Shown here one piece after another: positions 2,462 to 60,580 of a stretch of DNA of 64,000 nt. The number at the start of each line of letters is the position of its first letter. Positions within the stretch are counted from its first letter, which is position 1. The notes beneath the pieces are model-generated. The model was not told the origin of the DNA. It searched no databases and was given only the letters and a program-made list of their open reading frames with translations. The position numbers were made by a program, and so were the translations under genes. Source of the stretch: Dehalococcoidia bacterium (GTDB lineage Bacteria; Chloroflexota; Dehalococcoidia; Bin125); assembly GCA_965218115.1 (NCBI GenBank), contig OZ244584.1:867835-931834 (forward strand), in the 5' to 3' direction.

Positions 2462-3289
2462 CTATCCCTCGACCCCGGTGCCCCAGGCAATCGCGTTCTT
2501 AATCAACTGCTCGTAGGGCTCGGTCTCCCAGGGACCGCGGAAGAGCTGTGGCATAACACCGTCGGGGGAGATCGACTCGTGGGCCGGGGGCTGGCGGGCC
2601 CCCAGCGTCAGCGGAGTGTGGCAATGGCCGGGCGCGATGTAGGCGATGGAGCCCTCGCCAACGGTGCGCGCGTAACCGAGCGCGTGCGACTTGCCGTCGG
2701 GCAAGAGTGACAGGTCGCGGCCGTAGAGCTCGTCGACAATCGCCGGGACTTCAACGTCGGTTGTGGTGAGCAGGATCTGAGTGTCGGGGTGGATCACTTC
2801 GATCATGTAGGGCTCGTCCTTGACGAAGAACGAGTCGGGCAGGTTGTACGTCAGCGGATGGTTGTGATCGGCCACGGTGACGTTCATCTCGCGGATCGGC
2901 GGATGGGTCATGAAGTAGCCGCCCAGCGTCTCGTGGTACGGCAGCTTGAGCATGCGGCGGCGGCCGTCTGCGCGATCGCTGGTCCGCTCTGGCATGCCGC
3001 CGGTACTACCGTGCAAGGCGAGCCAGCGGCCTCCGTCGTCGAGCCAGTCCATGATCACGCCGCACTGGTGCTCGTCGGCGAACGGGCCCGCGACGTAGCA
3101 GACCAGCAGCTGACAGTCGGCGATCCACTTGTGGCAGTCGGTGAAATCGCCGCTTACGGTGGCGTGCACGTTCGCGTTGGACTGCAACGCCTGGAGGATG
3201 CGCAGGCGCGCATAGTCCATGTCGTGTCCGGCGTGCTTGCCCGGCGGGAACCCTCCGGCGACGACGTGCACCCGAATTGGCTGGGACAT
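2462..3289 (-). CDS. ThuA-like / class-I glutamine amidotransferase-like domain protein
   Basis: 275-aa ORF with good codon usage. Weak recalled similarity to ThuA (trehalose utilisation) family; function uncertain. Confidence 0.45.
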   Translation of the reverse strand: MSQPIRVHVVAGGFPPGKHAGHDMDYARLRILQALQSNANVHATVSGDFTDCHKWIADCQLLVCYVAGPFADEHQCGVIMDWLDDGGRWLALHGSTGGMPERTSDRADGRRRMLKLPYHETLGGYFMTHPPIREMNVTVADHNHPLTYNLPDSFFVKDEPYMIEVIHPDTQILLTTTDVEVPAIVDELYGRDLSLLPDGKSHALGYARTVGEGSIAYIAPGHCHTPLTLGARQPPAHESISPDGVMPQLFRGPWETEPYEQLIKNAIAWGTGVEG

Positions 3290-3385
3290 GTGAGGCTCCG
3301 TTCAGCGGTGATCTGCCCGTTAAAGCTACAGCCTTTGGGCCGAGCTGACCACGACCGGCTGGGCCGTCCGCGTGAAGAGGTGTGC

Positions 3386-3461
3386 TGGTGGGCCGGGCTG
3401 GATTCGAACCAGCGACCGAGCGGTTATGAGCCGCCTGCTCTGACCCCTGAGCTACCGGCCC
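3386..3461 (-). tRNA. tRNA-Met (anticodon CAT) with encoded CCA
   Basis: Reverse complement GGGCCGGTAGCTCAGGGGTCAGAGCAGGCGGCTCATAACCGCTCGGTCGCTGGTTCGAATCCAGCCCGGCCCACCA folds as a cloverleaf: 7-bp acceptor stem, GCTC/GAGC D-stem, CTCATAA anticodon loop, GCTGG-TTCGAATC-CCAGC T-arm, discriminator A, CCA. Confidence 0.9.
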
Positions 3462-3674
3462 CTGCCTGCCCGCGAGTCTAACCGCGCGGCCCCGGCGGCG
3501 TGGCCTGCCTGGCGCCGGAGCGTCCCCGCGCTTAGATGGAGGCAGACAATGAAGCTCGGCGCACCCCCCGAGTTGGCCCGGCGACCGCTGGGCCGGCGGC
3601 GAATGACTGGGGGCAAGGCCTGGTCGCACGGCCGCGGCCGGGCTGATCCGGGATACCTCGCCTAACCTCGACGC

Positions 3675-4217
3675 ATGACCACGCTTCGAGCCATCGCCCT
3701 CATCGCGATCGCCGCGTTTGCGACGCTTGCGTGCGCCCCGGCGCCCACGCCCAGACCGCAGCTGGACCCTGGCGCGCCCGACCTCTCGGCGTTCCTCGAT
3801 CTCCCCGACGAGGTGGAGGCGGTGTCGTTTGACTGGACCTCGATGACGATGGTCACCGACGAAGCGGAGCTCGAACTCGGCGTCTTCATCGCCGACACCC
3901 CCGAGCGCCGAGGTCGCGGCTTGATGTACGCCAGCGGGCTGCCCCCCGCCAACGCGATGCTCTTCGTGTTCGAGGACCCACCCGTGCACTCGGGCTTCTG
4001 GAACGACAACGTGCCGATCGACCTGCACGTCGCGTTCCTCGACGCCGAGGGACGGATCATCGAGATACTCACGCTCGAGGCCCGGTCACGGGAGATCAGG
4101 CAGCCGCAGCAGCCGTACTCCTACGCCCTCGAGGTGCCCGCCGGACGCTTCGACGCACTCGGAATTGGGCTGGGAGATCGACTGATCGTCACACTCGAAA
4201 CCACGCAACAAAACTGA
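3675..4217 (+). CDS. DUF192-family secreted lipoprotein
   Basis: Signal peptide with lipobox (ATLAC). Central region resembles the DUF192/COG1430 pattern (FIADTPERRGRGLMYASGLPPANAMLFVFEDPPVHSGFWNDNVPIDLHVAFLDAEGRI). Confidence 0.6.
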   Translation: MTTLRAIALIAIAAFATLACAPAPTPRPQLDPGAPDLSAFLDLPDEVEAVSFDWTSMTMVTDEAELELGVFIADTPERRGRGLMYASGLPPANAMLFVFEDPPVHSGFWNDNVPIDLHVAFLDAEGRIIEILTLEARSREIRQPQQPYSYALEVPAGRFDALGIGLGDRLIVTLETTQQN

Positions 4218-4305
4218 CCCACGCAGCACTTGGCCCGTGCTAACCTGCTAGCAATTCTCACGTGCGCGCCGCTCGTGGCGGCGCCGTCAAGGAATGGACA
4301 GCCAG

Positions 4306-4404
4306 ATGAAGCGTATCGTTGGCATCGGAGCAATCTTGGCTCTCCTCGCGGCCGTCGCGCGCGTCGTCATGGGGCGCCGACGCGACGCCGAAGACGAGGC
4401 CTAG
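4306..4404 (+). CDS. possible small single-TM peptide (32 aa, MKRIVGIGAILALLAAVARVVMGRRRDAEDEA)
   Basis: ATG preceded by aaggaa RBS at -10; hydrophobic core then a basic/acidic tail. Below the ORF-track length cutoff, found by reading the intergenic region. Confidence 0.3.
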   Translation: MKRIVGIGAILALLAAVARVVMGRRRDAEDEA

Positions 4405-4530
4405 CCAGCGCCGACCGGGCTCCATCCCGGTTCCGAACTCTCCCCGACGCGGTGAGCGGCTCGCCACGAGCGGGTCACGTCGGGCCGTCCGCGGCCTAAT
4501 CGTACGACCGGCCGCCCGATCAACTGCGAC

Positions 4531-6000
4531 ATGAGCCGCGATCTCTATCTGGCCCTGGACTCGGGCACATCAAGCGTCCGTGCCCTCGCCTTCGACGCTC
4601 ACGGCCGGCTGCGCGGCCTCGCACAACGTGTGCTCGAGACGCGTCATCCCGAACCCGGTTGGGCCGAGCAGGACGCTGAACAACTCTGGTCGTCGCAGCT
4701 GCTCGCGGCCCGCGAAGTGGTCGCGACGGTTGGCGGTGCGGAACGCATCCGCGCGATTGCGATCGCCAATCAGCGCGAGACAGCGGTCATCTGGAATCGG
4801 CACACCCTGACCCCGATCGCACCCGCGATCGTCTGGCACTGCCGTCGCACGGCAGCGGCCGCTGCGGCGCTCGGACGTGCGCACGGCGACGAGATCCGAC
4901 GCCGCACCGGGCTGACGCCCGACGCCTACTTCTCGGGACCGAAGCTGGCCTGGATGCTCGATCACGGGTCCGGCGCGCGCGACCTCGCGTCGCAGGGCGA
5001 CCTCCTCGCCGGGACCGTCGATTCGTGGCTGATCGCTCGGCTCACCAACGGCCTGAGCCACCTGACCGATCGCACCAACGCCTCGCGCACGCTGATCTAC
5101 AACCTGTTGACCGACGCGTGGGACGCCGATCTCGCCGCGTGGAGCCGCGCGCCCCTCGCGATGCTCCCCGAGGTTCGCCCCAGCACCGGCGAATTCGCCA
5201 CCACCGCAGCCGAGCATCTCGGCGAGCCGCTGCCGATCCTCGCGGTCGCGGGCGACCAGCAGGCCGCGCTGTTCGGCCAGCACTGTGACGCGCCGGGGCC
5301 CGCCAAAGCGACCTACGGGACGGGCGCGTTCGTGCTCACGCGGGCGAGCGCCGGGCAGACGCCGCCCGCCGGCCTGCTGCTGACGGCGGCGGCGGACTCT
5401 CCCGCGGCGCTCGCGCTCGAGGGCGGCGTCTTCACCGCCGGGGCGCTGATCGACTGGCTGGTGTCGGAGCTGGGGCTCGCCGCCGACGGCGCGGAGCTCT
5501 CACGGCTGGCGAGCTCGGCCGCCGACAGCGGCGGAGTCGCCGTGCTGCCGGCGCTGGCCGGGATCGGGGCGCCGCATTGGGATTCGCAGCCACGCGGGAT
5601 GATCGCCGGGCTCTCCACCGGAACCACGCGGGCGCAGATCGCACGCGCCGCCCTCGAAGCGATCGCCTTCCGCGTGCGCGAGATCATCGAGGCGATGCCA
5701 ACCCCGATCGACGAGCTGCGGGTCGACGGCGGCCTGGCACACAGCGGCGCGCTCTTGCAGATTCAGGCGGATGCGCTCCAGCGACCCGTGCTGCGTCCGG
5801 GCAACCTCGAAACAACCGCCCTCGGCGCCGCGCGACTGGCGATCCGTGCGGACCTCGGCGATCCGCCCACGCACGAGCCCGACTACACGCGGATCGAGCC
5901 GCGCGCCGATCTCGACGCGGCCTATGAGCGCTGGCAAACGCTGCGCGCTGCCGCAGCGCAGATCCCGACATACACTGCCTCCGAGCGAGCAGGCGCATGA
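4531..6000 (+). CDS. glpK: glycerol kinase (FGGY family)
   Basis: LDSGTSSVRALAFD, HPEPGWAEQDAEQLW and AIANQRETAVIWNR...AIVWHCRRTA motifs. 3' end overlaps the glpD start by 4 nt. Confidence 0.85.
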   Translation: MSRDLYLALDSGTSSVRALAFDAHGRLRGLAQRVLETRHPEPGWAEQDAEQLWSSQLLAAREVVATVGGAERIRAIAIANQRETAVIWNRHTLTPIAPAIVWHCRRTAAAAAALGRAHGDEIRRRTGLTPDAYFSGPKLAWMLDHGSGARDLASQGDLLAGTVDSWLIARLTNGLSHLTDRTNASRTLIYNLLTDAWDADLAAWSRAPLAMLPEVRPSTGEFATTAAEHLGEPLPILAVAGDQQAALFGQHCDAPGPAKATYGTGAFVLTRASAGQTPPAGLLLTAAADSPAALALEGGVFTAGALIDWLVSELGLAADGAELSRLASSAADSGGVAVLPALAGIGAPHWDSQPRGMIAGLSTGTTRAQIARAALEAIAFRVREIIEAMPTPIDELRVDGGLAHSGALLQIQADALQRPVLRPGNLETTALGAARLAIRADLGDPPTHEPDYTRIEPRADLDAAYERWQTLRAAAAQIPTYTASERAGA

Positions 6001-11394: not shown

Positions 11395-11973
11395 ATGCGT
11401 AGCATGCCCAAACTTCGAGCGCTGCTCGCACTCATGTCCAACAGTGAACATCAATCTGATGTCGACGAGTCGCTCAGTATGGGATGGGCGGAGGCCCTTG
11501 ATCTGGACACGCTCGACTATCTGTACGCCGAGAGCCGCGCTCGCCTACTCGAGCAACTCCAGGCCATCGATGCATTAGCTGCGAAGGCGCGGGCAGTTGC
11601 CGGATTCGTAGCTCTCGTGATCATCGCGACCGGGGTCCTTGGAGATCTCCGCATCTCGTTCACCGAGGACAGCGTCGCCAGCAGCCTCTCCATGATCGCG
11701 GTGATTGCGTTCGTAGGCGTCCTCGCCGGCGCGGCAGTCATCATGTGGCCGCATCCGATCAGAACGGGGGTGCTCCCAACATGGTTGGCCCGCTATTCGA
11801 TCGACGAGTCGAATGCGACGGCACTGAGAGCCGCCACGACTGAGATTCAGGTCGATGCGTTCGCTTGGAACGTGCGAACGATGGCACGCAACGACGCCAT
11901 CATCCGAGGCATCATGGCGCTCGCGGCTGTTGAGGTTTCGGCTGTCGTCGCGCTATTCATCTCACGGGCATGA
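11395..11973 (+). CDS. hypothetical small membrane protein (about 3 TM helices), lower GC than surroundings
   Basis: 192-aa ORF with a helical N-terminal region, hydrophobic helices (VAGFVALVIIATGVLG; MIAVIAFVGVLAGAAVIM; IMALAAVEVSAVVALFI), and ~58% GC against ~70% background. Confidence 0.45.
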   Translation: MRSMPKLRALLALMSNSEHQSDVDESLSMGWAEALDLDTLDYLYAESRARLLEQLQAIDALAAKARAVAGFVALVIIATGVLGDLRISFTEDSVASSLSMIAVIAFVGVLAGAAVIMWPHPIRTGVLPTWLARYSIDESNATALRAATTEIQVDAFAWNVRTMARNDAIIRGIMALAAVEVSAVVALFISRA

Positions 11974-12417: not shown

Positions 12418-13557
12418 ATGACCACAGGCACGACGCGCCGCACCGGCTGGGTCTATCACGAGGCCTATATGTGGCACGACCCCGGCCGCATGCGCGCATT
12501 CGATCCCTCGATGCGGCGCTGGCTGCAGGCCTGGGAGCACTATGAGAACCCCGAGACCAAGCGCCGGCTCAACAACCTGCTGGAGTACGTGGACTTCAGC
12601 GAGGAGCTGGTCCCGCTGAAGCCGCGGGCAGCCAACTTCGAGCAGGTCACGCGCTTCCACACGCCCGAGTATTTCGAGAAGATCCGCGAGATGAGCGAGG
12701 CCGATGGCGGCGAGAGCGGCGAAGGCGCCACCTTCAGCCACGGCGGCTTCGAGATCGCCCTGCTCGCCGCCGGCGGCACGATCACCGCGGTCGACGCGGT
12801 GCTTGACCGCGAGATCGACAACGCCTACGCGCTCGTGCGACCGCCCGGGCACCACGCCGAGCGCGACCGCGGGCGTGGCTTCTGCATCTTCGGCAACGTG
12901 GCGATCGCCGGGATGCACGCGCTCGCCGATCGCGGTCTCGCCCGGATCGCGACGCTGGACTGGGACGTGCACCACGGCAACGGCACCCAACAGGCGTTCT
13001 ACGACCGCAACGACGCGCTGACCATGTCGATCCACCAGGACCAGTGGTACCCGCGCGACTCCGGCGCGATGCACGAGACCGGTGAGGACGACGGCGACGG
13101 CTACAACATCAACATCCCGCTGCCGCCGGGCTCGGGACACGGCGCGTATGTCGCGACGATCGAGCAGGTGGTCGTGCCGGCACTGCGGGCGTTCAAGCCG
13201 GACCTGATCCTGGTGCCCTCGGGCTTCGACGGCGGCATGTACGACCCGCTGGGGCGGATGATGGCCTACAGCGAGACGTTCCGCGAGATGACGGGGCTGC
13301 TGATGGAGGCGGCCGACGAGCTCTGCGAAGGGCGACTCGTGCTCTCGCACGAGGGCGGCTACTCGCCGACCTATGTGCCGTTCTGCGGACTCGCAGTCGT
13401 CGAGGAGCTAAGCGGCAAGACCTCCGGCGCGGCCGACCCAATGGGCGACAACGCCGCAGGCGCCGGCGGTCAGGATCTACAGCCGCACCAGCAAGCGCGA
13501 ATCTCCGAGGCCGCCACGATGGTCGCCCGCCTGCGGTCAATGGAGGGCCTCAGCTAG
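12418..13557 (+). CDS. histone deacetylase-family amidohydrolase (acetylpolyamine/acetoin-utilisation type)
   Basis: RPPGHHAE, GFCIFGNVAIA, DWDVHHGNGTQ motifs of the arginase/deacetylase superfamily. Start at 12418 preceded by gaagggag RBS; the ORF-track start at 11989 is rejected. Confidence 0.8.
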   Translation: MTTGTTRRTGWVYHEAYMWHDPGRMRAFDPSMRRWLQAWEHYENPETKRRLNNLLEYVDFSEELVPLKPRAANFEQVTRFHTPEYFEKIREMSEADGGESGEGATFSHGGFEIALLAAGGTITAVDAVLDREIDNAYALVRPPGHHAERDRGRGFCIFGNVAIAGMHALADRGLARIATLDWDVHHGNGTQQAFYDRNDALTMSIHQDQWYPRDSGAMHETGEDDGDGYNINIPLPPGSGHGAYVATIEQVVVPALRAFKPDLILVPSGFDGGMYDPLGRMMAYSETFREMTGLLMEAADELCEGRLVLSHEGGYSPTYVPFCGLAVVEELSGKTSGAADPMGDNAAGAGGQDLQPHQQARISEAATMVARLRSMEGLS

Positions 13558-13579
13558 CGCACCCCCGCCAGCGTCCGCC

Positions 13580-14215
13580 CCAAAATCGCTCCCCCCGAGG
13601 GGGAGCTGTCGCGCAGCGACTGAGGGGGAGGCTCCCAAGCCCGTGAGCTCGCAACCCGCCAAACACTCCCCGCTCTGCCTTCAACAGCTCCCCCCGAAGA
13701 GACCTGCGCGTAATCCCCATTTCCCCTCTCCCCCCGCTCCGCGGGGGAGATGCCGCAGCCTGCCCCAGCGCAGGCACGGGGCAGACGGGAAGAGCGCCGC
13801 GGTCAGCGGTGGTCATCGCGGGCCTCTCCCGCCGTCATTCCTGCGCCTCCCCCGCCGTCATTCCTGCGCAGGCAGGAATCCATGCGACCGCCCAACAACC
13901 CTTGACGCCTCGGCGCTCTCGACGTTCCACCGACGGATCGAACGCGCGCGTTGGGCGATCAAGCGCCGTCGGACGATCGACGCCCCTGCGATGCCCTCAG
14001 ATCGCCTGGATTCCTGCCTGCGCAGGAATGACGGAGGGTTGCGAGTGGCGCGAGTCATTGAGCTGGTCGGGCATGCGGACTTCGGAGTCGATGGTGACCG
14101 TTCGCCCCCACCAGCGCCCTGTGCGTTGATCCTCAACACAGTCGCTCAGTCGCTGTGCAACAGCTCCCCCGCCGGGGGAGCGATTCCGTCTGATCGTTCG
14201 GCCGCCACGACTCCG
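13580..14215. repeat. composite repeat cluster (modules B, E/C, two half-copies of the A terminus, a full MITE-like element A, module F)
   Basis: CGCTCCCCCCGAGGGGGAGCTGTCGCGCAGCGACTGAGGGGGAGGC (B). Element A spans 13838-14037 with termini CCCTCCGTCATTCCTGCGCAGGCAGGAATCCATGCGA / TCGCCTGGATTCCTGCCTGCGCAGGAATGACGGAGGG. Convergent junction HDAC(+)/rSAM(-). Confidence 0.85.
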
Positions 14216-14377
14216 CGAGCCCCGGGTCAGGCTGGCTGGGACAGCGGTCGGCCCGGTCAGACCCGGTCAGGAATGGTCAGAAACGGTCAGCGTCGGTCCG
14301 CTTCCGGCGCAGGTGGAAGGCGGCGAGGGTGATCGGTGGAGTTAGAGCGAGGCGAACTGCCCCGTGGTGGGTTCCGC

Positions 14378-15676
14378 TCAACAGAACCAGGCCTCCGTCA
14401 GGCCGGGAACATGCTGCGGGCCCGGTGGCGCGTCGGGCCACGGCGCGGCATTCAGCCGCTCGCACGCGATCTGCTTGACGGCGGCGAAGACCTGCGCGCT
14501 CGTCGCACCTTCGGCCCGTTCGACCAGCGCCGCGAGCTCCGCTTGCAGCGCGTCCATGCGCGGATCGGGGTGACGCCACTGCCAGATCAGGCCGTCCTCG
14601 TCGAACTCTCGAAGCCAGCCGGCCGCGCGAATCGGGGACACCAACGGCGAGGCGGGCGGCACCAGCAGTCGCAGGCCAAGCTGCACGGGCGGTACCGCAG
14701 CGATGATCGCGTGCTGCTCAATGAAGCGAAGCAGCGCGAGGTAGTCGTCACTTGACGTCCAGGGAGTGAAGGGCAGCCAGGTGGGACGGAGCGCGATTCC
14801 CGCGTCGGCGACCAGGCCGAGCGCCGAACCGACATCGGCCGCGCTGTGGCCTTTGTCGAGCACGGTCAGCAGCTGATCCTCAACGGACTCGAACGCCGAG
14901 GTGATGAACGTGACGCCGAGATCGGACAGCGTGGGCAGCAGTTCGCGGTGATCGAGCAGGTGCTCGACCTTGATCGTGACGTCGAATGTCAGCTCCGCGT
15001 GGCGTCCCCGCGCTGCTTCGAGCAGTTCCAGCCCGTATCCGGGCGCGTTGAAGAAATCGGGATCGCCCAAGGTGATATGGCGAGCGCCCATCGCGGCCTG
15101 TTGGTCGATGTCGCCGAGCACCGATTCGGCGCCGTTGAGCCGCAGGCGGCCGGCGTAGACCGGCGTGATCGGGCAGTGGGTACAGCGATGAGCGCAGCCG
15201 CGCGAGGCCTCGGCGTAGCCGGACAACTCGAACTCGCCTTCGCGGCCGTGATAACGCGCGTAGGCGTCAAGCGGCGGTAGGCCGGAGCGATCGGGGACGC
15301 CGCGCGGATCACGGTCGAACGCGATTCCCGCGGGAGCGTCGCCGCGGGCCAGCGCCAACAGCTGGCCGTCGGTGTCGCCGGTCAGGGTGCGTCCGGGGAT
15401 GCCCATCGCACCGAGGCCGTAGAGCACGACCTTGTCCCCGAGGCCGCGCTGCCGGAGTTGCCGCGAGAGCGCCAGCCCGAGTCGTGCGGCGGTGTGCATC
15501 GGGGTCGAGACGGCGATCAGGCCGGCCCACTCGTAGGCGGATTCGTCGGCCGGTTCGACGGAGAGGTCGAGCGTCCGCACATCGTGGCCGTCGGCGCGCA
15601 GCACTACAGCAGGCGCCGCCAGCCCAAGCGGCTGGTGGCCCTGTTCGTAGGTGTTGATCAGCAGAACGCGGCTCAC
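14378..15676 (-). CDS. B12-binding-domain radical SAM protein
   Basis: CAHRCTHC (CxxxCxxC) cluster after an N-terminal B12-binding-like region. GTG start with aggatga RBS. Confidence 0.7.
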   Translation of the reverse strand: MSRVLLINTYEQGHQPLGLAAPAVVLRADGHDVRTLDLSVEPADESAYEWAGLIAVSTPMHTAARLGLALSRQLRQRGLGDKVVLYGLGAMGIPGRTLTGDTDGQLLALARGDAPAGIAFDRDPRGVPDRSGLPPLDAYARYHGREGEFELSGYAEASRGCAHRCTHCPITPVYAGRLRLNGAESVLGDIDQQAAMGARHITLGDPDFFNAPGYGLELLEAARGRHAELTFDVTIKVEHLLDHRELLPTLSDLGVTFITSAFESVEDQLLTVLDKGHSAADVGSALGLVADAGIALRPTWLPFTPWTSSDDYLALLRFIEQHAIIAAVPPVQLGLRLLVPPASPLVSPIRAAGWLREFDEDGLIWQWRHPDPRMDALQAELAALVERAEGATSAQVFAAVKQIACERLNAAPWPDAPPGPQHVPGLTEAWFC

Positions 15677-15800
15677 GCGGTCATCCTAACCGGCCGCCAA
15701 CGGGAGGACTCCCGCCTATACTTCGCGGGCTGCGCTAACGCTGGCGCCACGGACCGACCGCCGCCCGCAACCATGCGGGCGACGAACGATCGGCTGCGGA

Positions 15801-17012
15801 ATGTCTGACCGCGCTGATATCGACCGGCTCGTCGATGTGATTCGCCGCATCGGAGCCATTGACGGCGAGCTGCTCGAGCTCCGGGAAACCAAGCACCTTT
15901 TGACTCTGCTCGAGCCCGGTGAGATGCCGGCGCGAATTGCGGCCAGCCCGAACGGCGTTGTTGTAGCAACCGATCGTCGCCTGATCGTTGTGAGCGGTGG
16001 CGGGGCAGGAGAGCCCAGCGCATTGGTTCACTCGTTTCGCTTCGGCAGCGTCAGGGAGGTACGGCTCGTTGGCTCCGACGTTGTGGAGGTCGACGCGGAA
16101 AGGGCGCGGATCTCGTTCACCATGCCCCGAAGCCATCGGACCGCGATAACCGAATACCTCCAGAGTCAACATGGTGTCGAGGTCGACCCATCACCCGTCG
16201 CAAGAGAAGACATCGAGCCCTTGACAGACGCAGCTAGGGGCGAACCTGCTGACGACACGAGTCCCCTGAGCCTCGAGCAGCGCACCGCTCGACTCAGGAA
16301 GTTGGGCGTCAAGCCGAACCCCGAGTCCAACGGCGTTGCGACTGCTCTGTTCGTCGTCGGGTTCATCGTGGGTGCGGTGTTGACTTGGGTGGTGGATGTC
16401 GGCCCGTGGGCGTTTGGGATCGCTTGGGTGCTTGCAGGTGCATCTTTCATCGTGGTCCTCGCGGGGATGGAAGATACCGAATCCGCGGTCCGCAGAGAAG
16501 AACTAGCTCACGGCCTTGAAACAGCCCCGCGCCAGAACGAGAGACCGCGTCAGTCGGGCTTGGGGCTAGGGCTGGTGTCAGGCGTCGTGGGCATCATCAT
16601 CCTCAGCCTCGTGATAGGGCTCGCTGGAACCGACGACGATCGAGGTGCGCCAGCCCGTTCGAGTGGCGGCTCGCTGGCGTCGTCGGCCACCCCATCAGGC
16701 TGGTCGCTGAGCAGATGCATCGAATATGGCGAGGAGATACAAGCGCGGATCTTGCATGTCGGCGTCAATAGTGGGTTGGTGACGGAAGCAGCCGATCGGG
16801 GAGACGGTGCGTCGGCCGTCCACCTCTGGGATAGACAAATCGAGCCGAGCTGGCGCTGGCTTGACACCGGAATCCCGCGATTCGAGCAAAACTGCCAAGT
16901 TCACGCGCCGTCGGCCGTCGACGTAGCCAGCAGTGGTTGGCGCGACGAGCTCCGGCCCGCTCTCCGCAACGCTGAGAAGCGCGTCGATGAGCTGCGAGCG
17001 GCTCTGCGCTGA
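15801..17012 (+). CDS. membrane protein with N-terminal bacterial PH (bPH_2-like) domain, paralog 1
   Basis: N-terminus LLEPGEMPARIAASPNGVVVATDRRLIVV...FRFGSVREV fits the bPH fold; 3 predicted TM helices; C-terminal extracytoplasmic region. Lower GC (about 60%). Confidence 0.6.
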   Translation: MSDRADIDRLVDVIRRIGAIDGELLELRETKHLLTLLEPGEMPARIAASPNGVVVATDRRLIVVSGGGAGEPSALVHSFRFGSVREVRLVGSDVVEVDAERARISFTMPRSHRTAITEYLQSQHGVEVDPSPVAREDIEPLTDAARGEPADDTSPLSLEQRTARLRKLGVKPNPESNGVATALFVVGFIVGAVLTWVVDVGPWAFGIAWVLAGASFIVVLAGMEDTESAVRREELAHGLETAPRQNERPRQSGLGLGLVSGVVGIIILSLVIGLAGTDDDRGAPARSSGGSLASSATPSGWSLSRCIEYGEEIQARILHVGVNSGLVTEAADRGDGASAVHLWDRQIEPSWRWLDTGIPRFEQNCQVHAPSAVDVASSGWRDELRPALRNAEKRVDELRAALR

Positions 17013-17447
17013 ACGCACACTTGGCCCCTCGCGACCCCACACCGCTGCGCCAGGTACGATCGCGGGTGGAGCCCGATTGCCCGGATCGAACGAGGTGCGC
17101 CGAGCTGTGCATAGCAGCGCGGATCGTGAGCTGGTGATCCGGTCCGATCTACCATCGGATAGTCACCCCTCCATGCTCGGCGGCCCTCGCGGGGCCGCCG
17201 CGAGATGACAGACCAGCTTGCCCGCATCCTTCTCCTCGTGTGTTCAACAGACAGACAATCCGCGCAGATGGCGCTATATTGCGCCACGGCTTGCTGCGAT
17301 CTGGCAACGCGGATCGGTATCCATTGATGATACGGGTTAGGGGATACGGGTCGCGTCCATCCGTCGCACAGCCGGGTGGCCAGAAGGCCTGAGCCGCTGC
17401 CTAGCTGGCACACACGCGAGTGCTGTCGACGAAGAACGAGGCGCGAT

Positions 17448-18533
17448 ATGCGCGACGAGATCGGCACCGACCAACTCATCGCTGCCGTGCGGCGAATCGA
17501 GGAGATCGACCAGGGTCTGCTCGATCTGCCAGAAACCAAGCATCTTCTGACAGTGCTAGAGCCCGGCGAGCTTCCGGAGGAGATCGCCAGCGGCTCACAT
17601 GTCGTCGCCACCGCAACCGGTCGCCGGCTGATTGTCGTGCGGCGGAGCCGAACAGGTAGTTCTATTGCGAGTGTCCAGTCGTTGTCGTTCGACGGCATCG
17701 AGAGAGTCCGATCCGTCGGAACGTTGGGGATCGAGATCCGCATCGAAGGCCGACGCACATCGTTCATCTTGCTCGAACAGCGCCGCAATCGCCTACTGGC
17801 ATACCTCAGGCGCAGACTCGGCGATTCCGCGGCCGATCCGTCACGCGCTGTGGCGCACGCCAACCCACGACCCGAAGCGAGAGGCGACAAGCCCATCGCT
17901 GGGGTGGGATCTCTGAGCCTGGATGAGCGAACCAAGCGATTGATGGACGCGGGCGTTCAGCCGAGTCCCAACGCCAACGGCCGCGCATTCGCTCTGTTTG
18001 TCATTGGGTTCGTTGTGAGCGCGGTGTTGAATTGGGTGGTGGATGTCGGCCCATGGCTGTACGGAATCGCTTGGACCCTCACAGGCGCATCGATGATCGC
18101 GTTCGTCGCGTCGCAGGAAGATATGGAGACAGCGGTGCGCAGGGAGGAAGTGGCTCTCGGGCTTGAATCGGCCTCGCGGACGGACGAGCGACCGGGCAAG
18201 CCGGGCTTGAGGGCGGGTGCGGTAGCGGTCGCCGTCGGAATCATCGTTCTTGGCATTGTCGTCGTCGCTGGCGGCTCAGACGGGTCGCCGGCCGACAGTT
18301 CCGGCTCGCGCCCCGTGAGCAGTGGCAACCTGCCTGGAACCATCGTGACCATTCGCAACTGCGCTGACGTCGATCGACTAATTGACAGGTACAGCCGGAG
18401 TGATGGGGGCGACGCGTTTGTGTACCGCGCGGGCGGACGGAGCTATCTGGTCAAAAACACCGGAGACATCCCGGACTTGGTGAACACGCCCTGGAAGAGC
18501 CTGTACTGGTACGCCTACGACATGTCGTGCTGA
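17448..18533 (+). CDS. membrane protein with N-terminal bacterial PH (bPH_2-like) domain, paralog 2
   Basis: Same architecture and clear similarity to 15801-17012 (LLDLPETKHLLTVLEPGELPEEIASGSHVVATATGRRLIVV; matching TM region LFVIGFVVSAVLNWVVDVGPW). Start moved to ATG 17448. Confidence 0.6.
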   Translation: MRDEIGTDQLIAAVRRIEEIDQGLLDLPETKHLLTVLEPGELPEEIASGSHVVATATGRRLIVVRRSRTGSSIASVQSLSFDGIERVRSVGTLGIEIRIEGRRTSFILLEQRRNRLLAYLRRRLGDSAADPSRAVAHANPRPEARGDKPIAGVGSLSLDERTKRLMDAGVQPSPNANGRAFALFVIGFVVSAVLNWVVDVGPWLYGIAWTLTGASMIAFVASQEDMETAVRREEVALGLESASRTDERPGKPGLRAGAVAVAVGIIVLGIVVVAGGSDGSPADSSGSRPVSSGNLPGTIVTIRNCADVDRLIDRYSRSDGGDAFVYRAGGRSYLVKNTGDIPDLVNTPWKSLYWYAYDMSC

Positions 18534-18534
18534 T

Positions 18535-19143
18535 CTACTTCTTGGAGGGCTGGTAGTAGGGGTTGTCGCCGGAGGCGTGATCGGTGACGTCGACCAGCTC
18601 TTCGATCTCGGGGATCTGCTCCTTGACCGCGACCTCGACGCCCTGCTTGAGGGTGACACTGGCCATGCCGCAGCCCTGGCACCCGCCGCCCATCTCGATG
18701 TAGGCGCGACTGCCCTGCACATCGAGCAGCTGCACGTAGCCGCCGTGCGCCGCGATCTGCGGGTTGATCTGTTCGTCGAAGATGCGCTGGATCTGCAGCG
18801 CGAGCGGGTCGCTCCAGACCGGATTGGGATTGTCGAACTCGAGGCCCGAGACGTTGGGACCCTTGAACTGATAGTTGACCGCGGTGCCGCGCAGGTCCTC
18901 GAGCCGCTCGCCTTCAACGAAGAGACGGAAGTCGGGGTAGTCGGCCACGGCGTCGCCCGCCGGCTCCATGCCCTTCTCGACGATCGTCAGCACGTGTTCG
19001 AAGCCGTCCGAGCTGCGCCCGATGATCTTTAGGCGCAGACCCGCCACCTCCTCGGGATAGCCCTGAAGGACCTCAACCAGCTTGCTCCGAGCTGCCTCGC
19101 TGAAGCGAATGCCCGGCTCGCCTGTGTCAACACTGCTCGTCAT
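18535..19143 (-). CDS. NfuA-like Fe-S cluster biogenesis protein (A-type-carrier-like N-domain plus Nfu C-domain)
   Basis: C-terminal GGGCQGCGMASVTLKQGVE Nfu CxxC motif; N-terminal HesB/IscA-like fold. Confidence 0.7.
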   Translation of the reverse strand: MTSSVDTGEPGIRFSEAARSKLVEVLQGYPEEVAGLRLKIIGRSSDGFEHVLTIVEKGMEPAGDAVADYPDFRLFVEGERLEDLRGTAVNYQFKGPNVSGLEFDNPNPVWSDPLALQIQRIFDEQINPQIAAHGGYVQLLDVQGSRAYIEMGGGCQGCGMASVTLKQGVEVAVKEQIPEIEELVDVTDHASGDNPYYQPSKK

Positions 19144-23764: not shown

Positions 23765-24050
23765 CAGAAATCGCTCCCCCCGAGGGGGAGCTGTCGCGCA
23801 GCGACTGAGGGGGAGGCCCGCACTGAGTTCCGCTGACCGTGGCGCTCTCCCCCTCTGCCCCCTGCCTGCGCAGGGGCAGGCTGCGGCATCTCCCCCGCAG
23901 GAGACGTGCGCGTAATCTCCATTTCCCCTCTCCCCCCGCGGAGCGGGGGGAGATGCCGCAGGCAGAGGGGGGCTCCGCGCGCGCGCGCACCACATAGCAG
24001 AAGCTCCCCACCGTCACTCCGTGACATCGCCCCCGCCCCGCGGGGGGAGA
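23765..24050. repeat. composite repeat cluster (modules B, inverted C', E, C', H)
   Basis: Same module series as 60185-60560 in related order. Convergent junction. Confidence 0.85.
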
Positions 24051-24076
24051 GCCGATCCGATTCGTTCCGAGGATGC

Positions 24077-26113
24077 CTAGCCGCCGAGGTAGAGCAGGTC
24101 GCCGGATTCGATCTGGAAGTCGACCGAGCCTGGGGTTGGCGTGCCCTCGCGCTCGCTGTAGATGAACCAGTAGTGGCCGCTCCAGAGCATCAACGACGCA
24201 ACGCCGCGGCTGGCGAGTCCGGCGAACAGCTCAGACGCGCGGCCACGACGGGGCGAGCGCCAGTTCGCGAAGTCGCCGGGACTCTGTTGACTGAGGGCTT
24301 CGATGCCCGGTCCGGCCGGCGGCGCGGATGTCGTGCTGATTTCGACGCCCGCAGTGACCGCGTCTGCGCGCGCGCTGATCAGCGCTCGGCCGCGGCCGAT
24401 CGCGAAGAAGCTCGCTTCGAAGCGACCGTCCTCGGTGACGATCCGGCTGCCTCCCTGGGGGAAGAACAGCACGGCGGCGGCTGAGGCGGGGATGCTGTCG
24501 ATACTCAGCTGCAGGGACGTGCCGTCGGCCACGTCGGCGCCCTGTTGATCCACGACACGACCCTGCACGCGAACACGGTCACCGGGATCGAGGCGGCCGG
24601 TCTGCTCCAGGGTGAGCGCGATCAGGGCGGGGCGCCCACTGACGACGAAGGCGCGCTGCGCAGTGATTTCGCCGTCGCGAGCGTGGACGATGTAGGCGCC
24701 GAGGTTTAGCTCCTCGAAGACCTCAAGCTCGATCCGGTCGCCGTCCTGTTCGGCCGCGAGCCGCCAGGATGGCACCAGCCGACCTGCGGCGTCGGTGACG
24801 GAGAGCTGAACGGTGGGCACGCCGACGTCGCGGCCCGTCGGGTCGACGCCGCGCAGCGTCAGGCTGAGGATGTCGCGCCCGTCGCCGCTGCCGTCGTAGT
24901 AGAGCGTGGAAGTGGGCGGATCGATCTCCAGGCGCGAGACATCCCCGCTGAACGTGACCCGAACCGGATCTGAGTCCAGCGAGCTGCCCCCCAGACGGTC
25001 GATCGTGGCGATCACGCTCGACTCGACGGCCTGCGACCCGGAGTAGAGGCGCAGGCCATCGATCTCGCCGGTGGCGCCGCCGGCGAAGCCGGCGATCGCC
25101 GCTTGAGTCATGGTGCAGGTCGAGCTGCGCGGCCTGCGGCCGAACTCCTCGCAGCCGCGATATTCGAGCGTGCCTTCGGTCGCGGTGATCCGGATCCCGG
25201 CGATGTCTGAGGCTTCGGCGGAACCGCCGCCCTCGCCGAGGACGCTGAGCGTGAGCTCGGTGAATGCGCTGCCGCCGGCGCGAATCGCCGCCGGGAACGT
25301 GGTCGCGTCGTTGTCGTCGGTGGGCTCGCGGTCGCTGAGCGCCAGGCCGACGCTCTGAACGCCGCTTGTCTCCCCGACGCGGAACGTCGCGACGGCGACG
25401 TAGCTGTTGTCGCCGACCTCGCCGCAGCGGTCGACGTTGGCCAGACACTCCGCGGCGAGAAAGCGGCCGAGGAAGCGATGCGACGTTTGGGCGGCCGTGA
25501 GCTGCGCCGAGACCGTGTACGTGCCCGGCGCTGTACCGGCGGGGATGCGGATGCGAGGCAGTGAGTGACCCTCGAACTCGCCGAGCGAGCCAATCTCGGC
25601 GAGGTCGTTCGTACTGGTGATCACGCACTCGGCGATGGCCGGGTCGGGTCCTTCGGAGGCGACGCCGCGCGGACAGGTGAGCTGCCCGCCGGTCGCGCTC
25701 GAGCCGGCGCCGACGAAGCGAAAGACGGTTGAGGACTCAGCCCCCTCGAGCTGATAGCTCAGCCCGCCCGAGAGGCGCAGCCAGGAAGAACCGGGGTTGA
25801 TCCGACTGTCGGTGATGCTCACCGCGTTGATCAACGGATTGGATGCGTCTGTGGTGAGCTGCAGCGTCGGCGCGATCACACCTTCCCAGTCATCGTCGAG
25901 GAACGACGGGTGGACGCGCAGCGTCAGCGCGACCTTGACGACGAGCGTGGAGCCGGGCTGAACGACGCCGTCAGCGTCGTTCGGGAAGCTGATTTCAAGC
26001 GCGAGCGGGTCGGCGTTGGCGCCCTTCGCCGGAGCGATCGCGAAGCCGGCGACCAAGAGGGCGCAGAGCACGAGCAGGATGGCGATCGCGACGCGACGGC
26101 TTCGCTGGTGCAC
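24077..26113 (-). CDS. large secreted/cell-surface protein, function unknown
   Basis: GTG start at 26113 with a GGAGG RBS 6 nt upstream, then RSRR n-region and hydrophobic h-region (VAIAILLVLCALLVAGFAIAPA). G/S/T/D-rich beta-type composition. Confidence 0.6.
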   Translation of the reverse strand: MHQRSRRVAIAILLVLCALLVAGFAIAPAKGANADPLALEISFPNDADGVVQPGSTLVVKVALTLRVHPSFLDDDWEGVIAPTLQLTTDASNPLINAVSITDSRINPGSSWLRLSGGLSYQLEGAESSTVFRFVGAGSSATGGQLTCPRGVASEGPDPAIAECVITSTNDLAEIGSLGEFEGHSLPRIRIPAGTAPGTYTVSAQLTAAQTSHRFLGRFLAAECLANVDRCGEVGDNSYVAVATFRVGETSGVQSVGLALSDREPTDDNDATTFPAAIRAGGSAFTELTLSVLGEGGGSAEASDIAGIRITATEGTLEYRGCEEFGRRPRSSTCTMTQAAIAGFAGGATGEIDGLRLYSGSQAVESSVIATIDRLGGSSLDSDPVRVTFSGDVSRLEIDPPTSTLYYDGSGDGRDILSLTLRGVDPTGRDVGVPTVQLSVTDAAGRLVPSWRLAAEQDGDRIELEVFEELNLGAYIVHARDGEITAQRAFVVSGRPALIALTLEQTGRLDPGDRVRVQGRVVDQQGADVADGTSLQLSIDSIPASAAAVLFFPQGGSRIVTEDGRFEASFFAIGRGRALISARADAVTAGVEISTTSAPPAGPGIEALSQQSPGDFANWRSPRRGRASELFAGLASRGVASLMLWSGHYWFIYSEREGTPTPGSVDFQIESGDLLYLGG

Positions 26114-27426: not shown

Positions 27427-27735
27427 GAATCCGATTCCCAACCGCTCCCCCCGCGGGGGAGCTGTCGCGCAGCGACTGAGGGGGAGGCCCGCGCCCGCAT
27501 CGGCTGACCGCGACCCACCCCCGCTTGTACGTTCGCGCCGGCTCGGGAGCTCTCCGTTCGGCATCTCCTCCCGCTGACCACATTGAGTGGTCAGCGGAAT
27601 CCGATTCCCAATCGCTCCCCCCGAGGGGGAGCTGTCGCGCAGCGACTGAGGGGGAGGCCCGCGCCCGCATCGGCTGACCGCGACGCACTCCCGCCTGCAT
27701 GTTCGCGCTGGCTCGGGAGCTCCCCCCGCCCCCCG
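27427..27735. repeat. tandem duplication (~170-bp period) of a module-B-containing unit with a module-D hairpin between the two units
   Basis: GAATCCGATTCCCAA(C/T)CGCTCCCCCCG...GCTCGGGAGCTC occurs twice (27427-27587 and 27596-27722), separated by CCGCTGACCACATTGAGTGGTCAGCGG. Convergent junction with sppA. Confidence 0.85.
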
Positions 27736-29174: not shown

Positions 29175-29560
29175 CATTCTCTCCCCCCGCCTCGCGGGGG
29201 GAGATGAGTGACAGAGCAACTGTGTTGAGGATCAACTCAGTCGACGCGGTTGGGGCCCTGTCCGTCATTCCTGCGCAGGCAGGAATCCATGCGGCCGCCC
29301 CACCGTGCGACGAGCCTCCATCCGCCCGACGGCCCACCGAAGCCCGCGCGGACCGCGCGTGATCGGGCGCCGTCGTACATTGGGAGTGCCCTCGACCCCC
29401 ACAGATCGCCTGGATTCCTGCCTGCGCAGGAATGACGGAGGGGTGCACGAATGACGCACGGGTGCAGGAATGACGCAGGGGGCGCCGGTCTGCCGCACCC
29501 AGGTTCGACTCAGAAACCAGCAGCTTCCGAGCCAGCGCGAACATACAAGGGGAGCCGCGT
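29175..29560. repeat. composite repeat cluster (module C variant, inverted module F, MITE-like element A at ~29259-29445, module G)
   Basis: Element A termini present on both sides; its internal sequence is nearly identical to the copies at 42105-42295 and 59205-59400. Confidence 0.85.
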
Positions 29561-32639: not shown

Positions 32640-33980
32640 CATCCACGCGAGATCGGCTCCACACACCCCGGAGTTGCGCGCCTCCGCCCCCTCCGTTATC
32701 CCTCCGCCCTCTCCGTCACTCCCGCGCCCCCTCCGTCATCCCTCCGCCTCCTCCGTCATTCCTCCGCGCCCGCCTCCGTCATTCCCGCCCGCTCTCGGTC
32801 ATTTCCTCCCGGTTTCCGTCCTTCCTGCTCCCCCTCGGCCCTTCCTACGCCCGCTCTCCGCCATTCCTGCTACCCCTCCGCCCTTCCTGCGCCCCCCCCC
32901 CGCCATTCCCGAGTCCCCCTCCCTCATTCCCGCGCCCCTCCCTCATTTCCGCACCCTCTCCGTCATCCCCGCGCCCGCTCCGTCATTCCTGCACCCCTTC
33001 CCGTCACTCCTGCACCCCCTCCGTCATTCCTGCGCAGGCAGGAATCCATGCGAGCTGCGTGGGTTCGAGAACAGCGCCGATGCTGGACGGCCTCCCGTAC
33101 GTCCGAGCCCCCCCCCTCCGGCGGCTTCGTGGCCCGCTGGCGGGATCGAGGCGTCAGGCAGCCTGCAGCAGGGGCATCGGAGCAGGCCAGGTGCAGCCGG
33201 TGTCCATGCAGGCGGGATCCGTTCGACACACCTCGGCGTTGCGCGCATGCCCCCCTCCGTCATTCCCGCGCCGCTCTCCGTCATTCCCGCGCCCCCCCCC
33301 CGCCATCCCTGCGCCCCCTCCGTCATTCCCGCGCCCCCTCGCCATCCCTCCGCCCCCTCCGTCATCCCTCCGCCCTCTCCGTCATCCCTCCGCCCTCTCC
33401 GTCATTCCTGCACCCCCCCCGTCGTTCCTGCGCCCCCCCCTCCGTCATTCCTGCGCAGGCAGGAATCCATGCGAGCTGCGTGGGTTCAAGAACAGCGCCG
33501 ATGCTGGACGGCCTCGCGTACGTCCGAGCACCCCCTCCGGCGGCTTCGTGGTCCGCTGGCGGGACGCAGGCGTCAGGCAGCCTGCAGCAGGGGCATCGGA
33601 GCAGACCAGGTGGAGCCCATGACCATGCAACAGGCGAGATCGGTTCGACCCACTTCCGGGTTGCGCGCATCCGCCCCCCCTCCGTCACTCCTGCGCCCCT
33701 TCCCGTCATTCCTGCGCAGGCAGGAATCCATGCGAGCTGCGTCGATTCGAGAACAGCGCCGATGCTGGACGGCCTCCCGTAGGTCCGAGCGCCCCCTCCG
33801 GCGGCTTCGTGGCCCGCCGGCGGGATGGAGGCGTCGGAGGGACCTGGGTCGTCGGTTGGATTCCTGCCTGCGCGGGAACGGCGGAGTGGGGCGGACGGGA
33901 TGACGAAGTGATGGACGGAGGAGCGATGTTGGACGAGGGCGCGCCTACGACTCAATCCGAGAGATGCGCGATACGCTGCG
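32640..33980. repeat. 1.3-kb repeat-dense region: degenerate ~21-bp tandem array (CCCTCCGTCATTCCTGCGCCC, about 15 or more units) followed by three ~250-430-bp higher-order units each carrying a module-A hairpin terminus
   Basis: GTCATTCCTGCGCAGGCAGGAATCCATGCGAGCTGCGTGGGTTCGAGAACAGCGCCGATGCTGGACGGCCTCCCGTACGTCCGAGC appears at ~33027, ~33457 and ~33707. Lies between the divergent MFS and PTPS-like genes. Confidence 0.8.
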
Positions 33981-41894: not shown

Positions 41895-42548
41895 CTCTCC
41901 CCGCTCCGCGGGGGGGTCGGAAATCGCTCCCCCCGAGGGGGAGCTGTCGCGCAGCGACTGAGGGGGAGGCCCGCGCTGACCTCCGCTGACCGCGCCCCTC
42001 TCCCCCCGCAAAGCGGGGGGAGATGTCACGAAGTGACAGAGGGGGGCCCGCCCCGGACCAAATACGCCACGCCGCTGCGTCCGGTCTGCAGACCCCGTCC
42101 GTCACACCCGCCCCTTCCGTCATTCCTGCGCAGGCAGGAATCCATGCGACCGCCCAACCGTGCGACGAGCCTCCAACCGCCCGACGGACCACCAGAGCCC
42201 CAGCGCACCGCGCGTGACCGAACGCCGTCGAACATTGGGAGTGCCCTTGACCCCCACAGACCGCATGGATTCCTGCCTGCGCAGGAATGACGGAGGCGGC
42301 GCAAAAGTGACGCGGGGATCGGTCTGCCGCACCCCGGTTCGACTCAGCCACCAACGGCTCCCGATCCAGCGCGAACATACAAAGGGGGGCCCGCCCGCGC
42401 CGCACCAGATACGCCACGCCGCTGCGTCGGCGCTGCAGACCCCCTCCTCTGCCTCCGGCATCTCCCCCCGCAGGAGACCTGCGGGTGATCCTACGAATCC
42501 CCTCTCCCCCCGCAAAGCGGGGGGAGATGTCACGGAGTGACAGAGGGG
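41895..42548. repeat. composite repeat cluster (modules B, C, MITE-like element A at ~42105-42295, G, E, C)
   Basis: Convergent junction between the hydrolase (+) and hflX (-). Confidence 0.85.
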
Positions 42549-54539: not shown

Positions 54540-54878
54540 ATGGCTGACGCGAATCTGCAGGACCACGACGAGACGAAGCGGGTCGAGATGTTCGAGGGCG
54601 TGACGATGCGCACGCTGAACCACGGCGAGCACACCTCGATCCACGAAATCGAGATCGCGCAAGGCGGCGTGGTGCCGATGCACACCCATCCGCACGAACA
54701 GATCGGCTACCTGGTCAGCGGCCGGGTGCTGTTCGAGCTCGGTGAGCTGAAGCGCGAAATCTCGGCCGGCGACTCCTGGATCATCCCCTCCGAGGTCCCC
54801 CACGAGGTCACCGCGCTCGAGGATTCGGTCGCGCTCGATATCTTCTCGCCCAAGCGCGACGAGTACATCAACCGATGA
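54540..54878 (+). CDS. cupin domain protein
   Basis: Two His-containing cupin motifs (HTHPHEQ ... PHEV). 3' end overlaps the purB start. Confidence 0.7.
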   Translation: MADANLQDHDETKRVEMFEGVTMRTLNHGEHTSIHEIEIAQGGVVPMHTHPHEQIGYLVSGRVLFELGELKREISAGDSWIIPSEVPHEVTALEDSVALDIFSPKRDEYINR

Positions 54879-56539: not shown

Positions 56540-56867
56540 GACACCAGCGATGCGTTGACGAGGCCTGCACGCGCACCATGTGACCCCACGCTCTCTAGCG
56601 CGCAGCCAACGGGACGATCACTTCGGCCACGCGAACTGGCCATCGCCCAGCCCTGCGCAGCGCAACAAGTGTCGACGGCCGCCGTGCTGGACACAGCTGA
56701 AAGACCCGCCCCTCAACCTCGCGTACAGGGGCAGCACGAGACTTGGGAAGCTCCCAAAAACTCTCCCCCCGCTTCGCGTTGGCAGAGTCATTCAGAGCCG
56801 TCCTGAGAGTGCCGCGCACTGAGCGCCCGTGCGACGCATGGGACTTGACGTCCTGGGCGGATCAGCC

Positions 56868-60560: not shown

Positions 60561-60580
60561 GCCATTGAGAGCGGGTCTAC

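Follow-up and report, generated by a model that had tools for sequence, protein, structure and literature searches.

Two adjacent genes in a 64,000-nucleotide stretch of the Dehalococcoidia bacterium contig OZ244584.1 (the window) encode diverged membrane proteins, paralog 1 and paralog 2, and occupy the gap between a NifU-like gene and a radical S-adenosylmethionine (rSAM) gene. Each protein is predicted to combine an N-terminal domain related to the bacterial PH domain bPH_3 with three transmembrane (TM) helices and a C-terminal ectodomain containing two cysteines (bPH-3TM proteins). The pair probably belongs to a very small, lineage-restricted family of accessory membrane proteins that was inserted into the gap between the NifU-like and rSAM genes and is not functionally tied to the rSAM enzyme. 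We regard the pair as an accessory insertion into a hotspot of variable content because the site holds zero, one, or two copies in related genomes, the order of the copies can be reversed, and the gaps of other relatives are empty or filled with different genes. The locus is a new and very narrowly distributed architecture, which is built on a known domain type and located in an insertion hotspot. The features of the locus, numbered from the first nucleotide of the window, are:

15801–17012, + strand: paralog 1, 403 amino acids (aa), with a bPH-like N-domain, three TM helices, and a "type-1" two-cysteine ectodomain
17448–18533, + strand: paralog 2, 361 aa counted from the ATG, with a bPH-like N-domain, three TM helices, and a "type-2" two-cysteine ectodomain
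17013–17447, no strand: spacer between the paralogs, 435 bp, 64.4% GC
15677–15800, no strand: gap between the starts of the rSAM gene and paralog 1, 124 bp
18535–19143, − strand: flanking gene of an NfuA-like Fe-S carrier (the NifU-like gene), with Fe-S_biosyn and NifU domains

An earlier note, made from the sequence of the window, had described two adjacent open reading frames (ORFs) of 403 and 362 aa as tandem diverged paralogs. Both ORFs are real and the first length is right; the second protein has 361 aa. The frame of paralog 2 is open back to a GTG at 17376, and homology to its orthologs begins at 17448. The proteins are indeed paralogs, with 48% identity over 303 aa (BLASTP, E 6e-74), and their last ~65–110 residues are not alignable. 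The split between them is old: their synonymous distance (dS) is > 1, compared to ~0.25–0.37 for the species split.

Occupancy of the NifU–rSAM gap and rarity of the family

About eleven loci, most of them from one lineage, were compared. The closest named relative is L001 (OZ253504.1), a chromosome of a Dehalococcoidia metagenome-assembled genome, the flanks of which are ~91% identical to those of the window at the DNA level. The contents of the gap, with the identity of the rSAM gene or protein to that of the window in brackets, are:

Window: an extra ~1.74 kb (15702–17444) with paralog 1 and the spacer, relative to L001–L003
L001, L002, L003 (~91–92%, DNA): one paralog 2-type gene on the opposite strand
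L004 (91%, DNA; partial, 333 bp): a type-2 gene adjoining rSAM, then a type-1 gene (gene B) adjoining NifU, which is the reversed order
L009, L010 (91.5–92.2%, DNA): gap empty, NifU 73–80 bp upstream of rSAM on the same strand
L007 (59%, protein): gap empty, 30 bp, NifU and then rSAM on the same strand
L008 (52%, protein): two restriction-modification (R-M) genes, 3212–5973
L006, L011 (73–74%, protein): a gene for a lipoprotein of 284–285 aa on the opposite strand (L006 5099–5956; L011 4102–4956)

The copy number at the site varies from 0 to 1 or 2 among genomes with flanks that are 91–97% identical, and the order of the genes differs between the two genomes with two copies. The distances between the NifU genes separate the window, L004, and L010 from L001, L002, L003, and L009, and each of these two sub-clades includes a genome with no copy. 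Orthologs of paralog 2 are present in related genomes at 77–80% aa identity. Paralog 1 was found in this genome only, and its region is absent from L001–L003. The type-1 ectodomain of L004 gene B is 64% identical to the C-terminus of paralog 1; however, the type-1 genes of the window and L004 are not simple orthologs, since their dS is > 1 in spite of 96.7% identity between the NifU genes next to them. The R-M genes in the gap of L008 encode an Eco57I-type methyltransferase and an N6_N4 methyltransferase-HNH protein. A weak and tentative resemblance to the type-1 ectodomain is seen in both repeats of the L006 lipoprotein, which have a WSxxRC...C pattern of the same spacing (E 7e-5 in a single pairwise comparison).

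The genes that border the pair, including those of an S15 peptidase and a deacetylase, are conserved and chromosomal. An NfuA-like gene is located on the same strand within ~3 kb of, or immediately upstream of, the rSAM genes of this type at 52–92% protein identity (window, L007–L011), which suggests that the two genes form a conserved functional pair of an Fe-S delivery protein and a radical SAM enzyme. In L007 (894–2009) and L010 (1301–2275), DDE_Tnp_1 transposase genes lie 1–3 kb away from the locus at its NifU/peptidase end, and their proximity points to mobile elements being active in the neighbourhood.

The family is rare. A word-indexed homolog search with paralog 1 returned only the protein itself from among 5.8e9 clusters. 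An exhaustive phmmer search of 1.84e9 cluster representatives identified 32 proteins at E<=1e-3, two of which are full-length relatives. Four of the matches (P0016, P0020, P0024, and P0027) have only the TM core in common with the paralogs; in the remaining ones the similarity is limited to the N-terminal ~125 residues, which are often tandemly repeated in soluble proteins with a terminal canonical bPH_3 domain and a SHOCT domain. A family-profile search gave six matches, and a scan of the genome collection found one locus. In total, the full-length bPH-3TM family comprises about five clusters among 15 billion proteins, from one Dehalococcoidia lineage only. The scan of JGI metagenomes returned no family match, tblastn against 50,697 phage and 72,556 plasmid records no match, BFVD nothing significant, and PADLOC-DB 2.0 no families for either paralog at E<=1.

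The composition of the block is atypical, in agreement with the earlier note. Its GC content of 63.2% (not ~60%, as estimated earlier), relative to 68.3% for the window (not ~70%), is the lowest of all 2733-bp segments of the window (a fraction of 0.002 has this value or less). The GC content at third codon positions (GC3) is 0.70 and 0.73 in the two paralogs, compared to 0.853 ± 0.051 for 45 genes of the window, and the paralogs have the largest codon-usage deviation among the window genes of their length. The lower GC content and atypical codon usage fit an accessory or foreign origin of the pair, in line with the horizontal origin suggested earlier from the GC content.

The intergenic sequences are less distinctive than previously described. 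The spacer between the paralogs had been considered an AT-richer region with an independent promoter. Its GC content is not below that of the two genes and is within one standard deviation of the intergenic mean of 67.6%, and it has one weak sigma-70-like site, at 17252–17280 (one found, 0.4 expected). The spacer also contains a GC-rich hairpin at ~17180–17200, has no homolog in the related loci, and, together with its flanks, contains no convincing or bacteriocin-like small ORF. The gap between the divergent rSAM gene and paralog 1, described as a shared control region of 125 bp, exists and measures 124 bp; only ~20 bp adjoining the rSAM start are kept in related genomes. The three intergenic regions upstream of paralogs that were compared do not align to each other or to L001.

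The two genes evolve faster than their neighbours, yet under purifying selection. The ratio of non-synonymous to synonymous substitution rates (dN/dS, omega) between paralog 2 and its L001 ortholog is 0.30 at 80% aa identity, compared to 0.14 for the rSAM gene and 0.09 for the NifU-like gene. Within paralog 2, the TM hairpin (92% identical to the ortholog, omega 0.12) and the ectodomain (87%, omega 0.13) are under the strongest constraint, and the type-1 ectodomain compared to L004 gene B has a dN/dS of 0.19.

Domain organization of the paralogs

The domains of the two proteins, with boundaries derived from hydropathy and AlphaFold2 (AF2) models, are:

15801–16175, + strand: paralog 1, N-terminal cytoplasmic domain, aa 1–125; three short helices, seven-strand PH sandwich, and capping helix (AF2)
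16335–16469, + strand: paralog 1, TM1-turn-TM2 hairpin, aa 179–223, motif LTWVVDVGPWAFGIAWVLAG; hydropathy, AF2 helices 174–197 and 202–236
16560–16622, + strand: paralog 1, TM3, aa 254–274; hydropathy, AF2
16686–17009, + strand: paralog 1, C-terminal extracytoplasmic domain, aa ~296–403, Cys306 and Cys365, WSxxRC...NC
17448–17822, + strand: paralog 2, N-terminal PH-fold domain, aa 1–125; AF2, Foldseek
17976–18116, + strand: paralog 2, TM1-turn-TM2 hairpin, aa 177–223; hydropathy, AF2; most constrained segment
18207–18269, + strand: paralog 2, TM3, aa 254–274; hydropathy, AF2
18333–18530, + strand: paralog 2, C-terminal extracytoplasmic alpha/beta domain, aa ~296–361, Cys305 and C-terminal Cys361

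The N-domain is followed in both paralogs by a poorly conserved linker of ~50 residues, predicted with low confidence, and a short conserved helix (R..RL..GV.P.P). The tight outer turn of the TM hairpin contains a conserved aspartate and several tryptophans (L[TN]WxxD[VI]xxWxxGxxWxxxG). A charged cytoplasmic loop, TM3, and a serine- and glycine-rich linker connect the hairpin to the small terminal domain, which is of two unrelated types, type-1 in paralog 1 and type-2 in paralog 2. Each paralog has exactly two cysteines, both inside the C-terminal domain. The number of TM helices, the charges of the loops, and the positions of the cysteines suggest a topology with the N-terminus inside, the C-terminus outside, and a disulfide-bonded ectodomain. 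The core of three TM helices and the variable extracytoplasmic C-terminus that had been proposed from the sequence are supported by the hydropathy profiles, the AF2 models, and the C-termini, which cannot be aligned. The predicted local distance difference test (pLDDT) score is ~30 for the C-terminal domain of paralog 1, which gives no usable model, and 63–71 for residues 301–340 of paralog 2, with lower values beyond.

The hairpin motif of paralog 1 recurs, as LTWxFDVSxWxWGLSWLxTG, in P0016 and P0027, which are small, lack a PH domain, and contain two or three tandem hairpins. The occurrence of such tandem copies outside the PH-domain proteins suggests that the TM hairpin is an independent, undescribed membrane module.

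The N-domain carries the motifs that were noted earlier (LLEPGE, VVATDRRLIVV, and FRFGSVREV, all present in paralog 1), and its proposed bacterial PH-like nature is borne out by its relatives and by the predicted structure. Neither full-length protein has a significant match in Pfam, NCBIfam, PADLOC, or PHROGs. The bPH_3 profile PF14470, which has a gathering score of 23 bits, matches neither paralog at E<=0.1 nor the isolated N-domain of paralog 2 at E<=0.01. Nevertheless, 25 of the 32 aligned homologous N-domain segments match PF14470, with a best E of 8.5e-16. A phmmer search with paralog 2 finds N-domain relatives with E-values down to 1e-21, and a hidden Markov model of the four closest N-domains also matches canonical bPH_3 domains in P0009 (residues 390–523, independent E-value 3.8e-6) and P0031 (residues 209–340, independent E-value 4.4e-7). 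A profile search of the PDB with the N-domain alignment gave weak matches to 3DCX and 3HSA (E 0.016–0.035).

The AF2 models of the N-domain reach a pLDDT of 94–97 over residues 11–120 in paralog 2 and 89–96 in paralog 1. In paralog 2, predicted strands 45–48, 52–56, 60–66, 73–80, 84–90, 94–99, and 102–107 are followed by helix 110–128, and paralog 1 has the same arrangement. A Foldseek search of the PDB with the paralog 2 domain placed 3HSA, 3DCX, and 3B77 at the top, together with eukaryotic PH domains, with a probability of ~1.0. Judged from the models and profile matches, the N-domain is a divergent relative of bPH_3 (YokE-like) with a three-helix N-terminal extension, too divergent to be recognized by Pfam.

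The N-domain is related to domains that score on PF14470, has the PH fold, and has the GELP...ATDRRxI signature in common with the bPH_3 family, and P0009, P0012, and P0013 pair an N-domain of the window type with canonical bPH_3 and SHOCT domains. In contrast, the proteins from the window are below the Pfam threshold, have the conserved three-helix extension, and have the domain joined to a core of three TM helices and an extracytoplasmic two-cysteine domain, both without a match to any model of Pfam, NCBIfam, PADLOC, or PHROGs. PF14470 domains often occur in multi-repeat proteins with a terminal SHOCT domain, and YokE, the namesake of the Pfam family, is the product of an SP-beta prophage gene of Bacillus subtilis. 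To our knowledge, bPH_3 proteins have no established function, and bacterial PH-like domains in general are widespread and almost uncharacterised. The best structural matches to the N-domain (Foldseek E 4e-4 to 1e-2, target TM-score ~0.6) are 3HSA and 3DCX, PHb1 or bPH_1 (PF08000) domains whose oligomers are ring-shaped (Xu et al. 2010, PMC2817789). These are soluble single-domain proteins with 13–22% sequence identity to the N-domain.

The start of paralog 1 at 15801 differs from the public gene call (P0001, 362 aa), which begins at Met42, 41 codons too far downstream. The call is judged too short because the 41 residues that it omits (15801–15923) have conserved counterparts in paralog 2 and lie within the part of the domain that is modelled with confidence.

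Possible function and alternative explanations

The ancestral unit of the locus was probably a co-directional gene pair, in which a NifU-like gene preceded the rSAM gene with a short gap between them. The bPH-3TM genes would have been inserted into this gap in the opposite orientation, and their divergence from the rSAM gene would be a by-product of the insertion. The proteins may be receptors or adaptors anchored in the membrane, with an exchangeable ectodomain that recognises something at the cell surface and a cytoplasmic PH-like domain that may oligomerise, or dock a partner or the inner leaflet, by analogy with other bacterial PH domains. We hypothesise that their most likely role is in conflict or protection at the envelope, for example phage exclusion or immunity to a toxin that targets the membrane. 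Such a role is favoured because of the strain-variable presence, atypical composition, and faster evolution of the genes, and because of the R-M genes in the gap of L008. In an extended version, which we consider unlikely, the NifU–rSAM gap would be a cassette-like hotspot in which genes for envelope proteins come and go, change their order, and acquire different ectodomains, and the bPH-3TM proteins would form a hitherto undescribed class of envelope conflict or immunity proteins (phage exclusion, toxin immunity) with a PH domain that transduces a signal or oligomerises upon surface recognition; the type-1 ectodomain might then also exist in a sister clade as a lipoprotein of its own.

Several points weigh against the interpretation of the pair as an accessory insertion with a protective role. 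The function is inferred by us for proteins to which PADLOC, PHROGs, Pfam, and NCBIfam assign nothing over their full length. The hotspot argument is based on the ~eleven loci mostly from one lineage, and the link to defence on one genome with R-M genes (L008). The lower GC3 could be explained by low expression rather than foreign origin. A dN/dS of 0.3 gives no overall sign of positive selection, and the value of 2.1 for TM3 comes from 25 codons. There is no integrase, transposase, flanking direct or inverted repeat, or att-like repeat around 15700–18534, beyond the paralogy itself, to mark a mechanism of gain and loss. The models of the C-terminal domain are of low (paralog 1) or moderate (paralog 2) confidence.

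The earlier note had proposed that the pair and the divergent rSAM gene could make up a sensing or envelope-modification module, with a shared, bidirectional control region. The genes are divergent neighbours both in the window and in L001–L004, but these genomes are all close relatives (rSAM DNA 91–95% identical), so their synteny has no independent weight. The co-occurrence is not conserved beyond them: L009 and L010, from the same lineage, and L007, with 59% rSAM identity, lack the pair and retain an intact arrangement of NifU followed by rSAM, and L006, L008, and L011 have other genes in its place. Furthermore, the rSAM family has > 4800 relatives compared to about five bPH-3TM clusters, and, apart from the ~20 bp at the rSAM start, the adjoining intergenic sequence is wholly different between the window, L001/L004, and L009/L010. 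We consider such a module extremely improbable. It is just as hard to regard the ORFs as annotation artefacts or as decaying pseudogenes of a once larger element, to which we assign an equally small probability. Atypical codon usage, losses in some of the relatives, the lack of an ortholog of paralog 1, and the frameshift in L004 gene B would agree with decay, but the L004 sequence is a long-read contig of 1x coverage in which the NifU and peptidase genes are broken too. Both ORFs from the window are intact (403 and 361 codons), their dN/dS is 0.30 overall and 0.12–0.19 in the TM hairpin and ectodomains, residues common to distant family members are conserved, and AF2 is very confident about both N-domains.

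The nearest functional precedent to the pair is provided by the YdbS/YdbT proteins (DdE/DdF, LnqC/LnqD), of which the paralogs would be analogues or members, with a role in the export of leaderless bacteriocins or in protection from them. Export of enterocin DD14 requires both DdE and DdF, and in YdbS/YdbT a TM hairpin precedes each PH domain and a protein with one PH domain is paired with a protein with three (PMC8657885). Like these systems, the pair consists of neighbouring genes of one orientation whose products are membrane proteins that contain bacterial PH domains, and it may have an accessory function at the envelope (PMC8657885). The resemblance ends there: every testable defining feature of the family fails, namely PH subtype, domain order, unequal partners, and neighbourhood. 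YdbS/YdbT domains are of the bPH_2 type (PF03703 / COG3402, COG3428), whereas those from the window are bPH_3-like: neither paralog and only 1 of the 32 relatives matches PF03703. The PH domain of the paralogs comes first and is followed by the three TM helices, the two partners are of similar size, most of the related genomes have one copy or none, and the neighbourhood lacks a plausible small-peptide ORF and an ABC transporter, both of which are present in bacteriocin loci. Thus, membership in this group is very unlikely. A remnant of a prophage, plasmid, or other mobile element, such as a superinfection-exclusion gene, is slightly less so, and still unlikely. The strain-variable presence, low GC3, and membrane proteins without an assigned function would suit such a remnant, as would the prophage location of the gene for YokE; however, the pair has no match in PHROGs or in the phage and plasmid records, BFVD gave nothing significant, no integrase or att-like repeats surround the block, and the adjoining genes are conserved and chromosomal.

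With the pair interpreted as an accessory insertion, the near-identical genomes with zero, one, and two copies, and the common PH-3TM framework with its two kinds of ectodomain, constitute a natural experiment on its function. The analysis removes a false guilt-by-association with a radical SAM enzyme. The source organism is uncultured, which makes experimental follow-up hard.

The rSAM selenoprotein gene and other features of the window

The neighbouring rSAM gene, which lies outside the pair, is, according to its conserved C-terminal sequence, a gene for a CUAEP-tail selenoprotein:

14342–15676, − strand: predicted CUAEP-tail radical SAM selenoprotein, flanking gene; in-frame UGA at 14378–14380, true stop TAA at 14342–14344

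The 3' end of the gene reads ...EAWFC-TGA-AEPTTGQFASL-TAA, and the earlier note ended the gene at 14378, at the TGA that represents the in-frame selenocysteine codon. Seven loci, including L001–L003, L006, L007, and L008, retain the C-U-A-E-P-T sequence and the extension, at protein identities as low as 52%. The comparative alignment also shows a hairpin at 14348–14364 that starts 14 nt after the UGA, has an AGUU loop, and contains two pairs with compensatory changes; the single-sequence fold after the UGA is not significant (z −0.87). The public gene calls for this protein and its closer relatives end at the UGA, giving products of 432–433 aa; the cluster of this rSAM at 90% has 52 members. 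The analysis reveals the selenoprotein cut in these calls, in addition to correcting the start of paralog 1 by 41 codons.

The protein matches NF040546, the model of CUAEP/CCAEP-tail radical SAM (seleno)proteins, over its full length and has the CxxxCxxC motif of a radical SAM enzyme and the C-terminal C-U-A-E-P with its UGA. The score of the ORF truncated at the UGA is 474.2 bits, and it increases to 494.1 bits, over positions 121–467 of the 468 of the profile, when the tail is restored with U read as C, just below the curated cut-off of 500. The previous designation as a B12-binding rSAM is imprecise; the B12-binding Pfam match is below its cut-off (29.3 vs 32.1 bits), and NF040546 is the best model. 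The CUAEP/CCAEP-tail rSAM family has been described as uncharacterised (bioRxiv 10.1101/2022.07.06.499078).

The largest codon-usage deviation in the window belongs to a gene of 192 aa on the + strand (11395–11973), downstream of an ATP-grasp gene, which has a GC3 of 0.70; its 199-aa counterparts in related genomes have no Pfam domain. Two tandem copies, 56842–57268 and 57325–57750, with a period of ~482 nt and 87–89% identity, are located in a 1.2-kb ORF-less gap with 61–63% GC between a purB-like gene (54875–56539) and a purC-like gene (57715–58650); the region 56842–57750 has no Rfam match at the gathering threshold. Many intergenic regions of the window contain interspersed, partly palindromic repeats of 40–200 nt that are 74–100% identical, several of which are also present in L001. 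They look like repetitive extragenic palindromic (REP) sequences or miniature inverted-repeat transposable elements (MITEs), and occur at:

13550–14340: ~800-bp ORF-less stretch downstream of rSAM
23768–24080: repeat region
27440–27658: repeat region
29207–29446: repeat region
33001–33905: repeat region
41921–42529: repeat region
59198–59397: repeat region
60207–60568: repeat region

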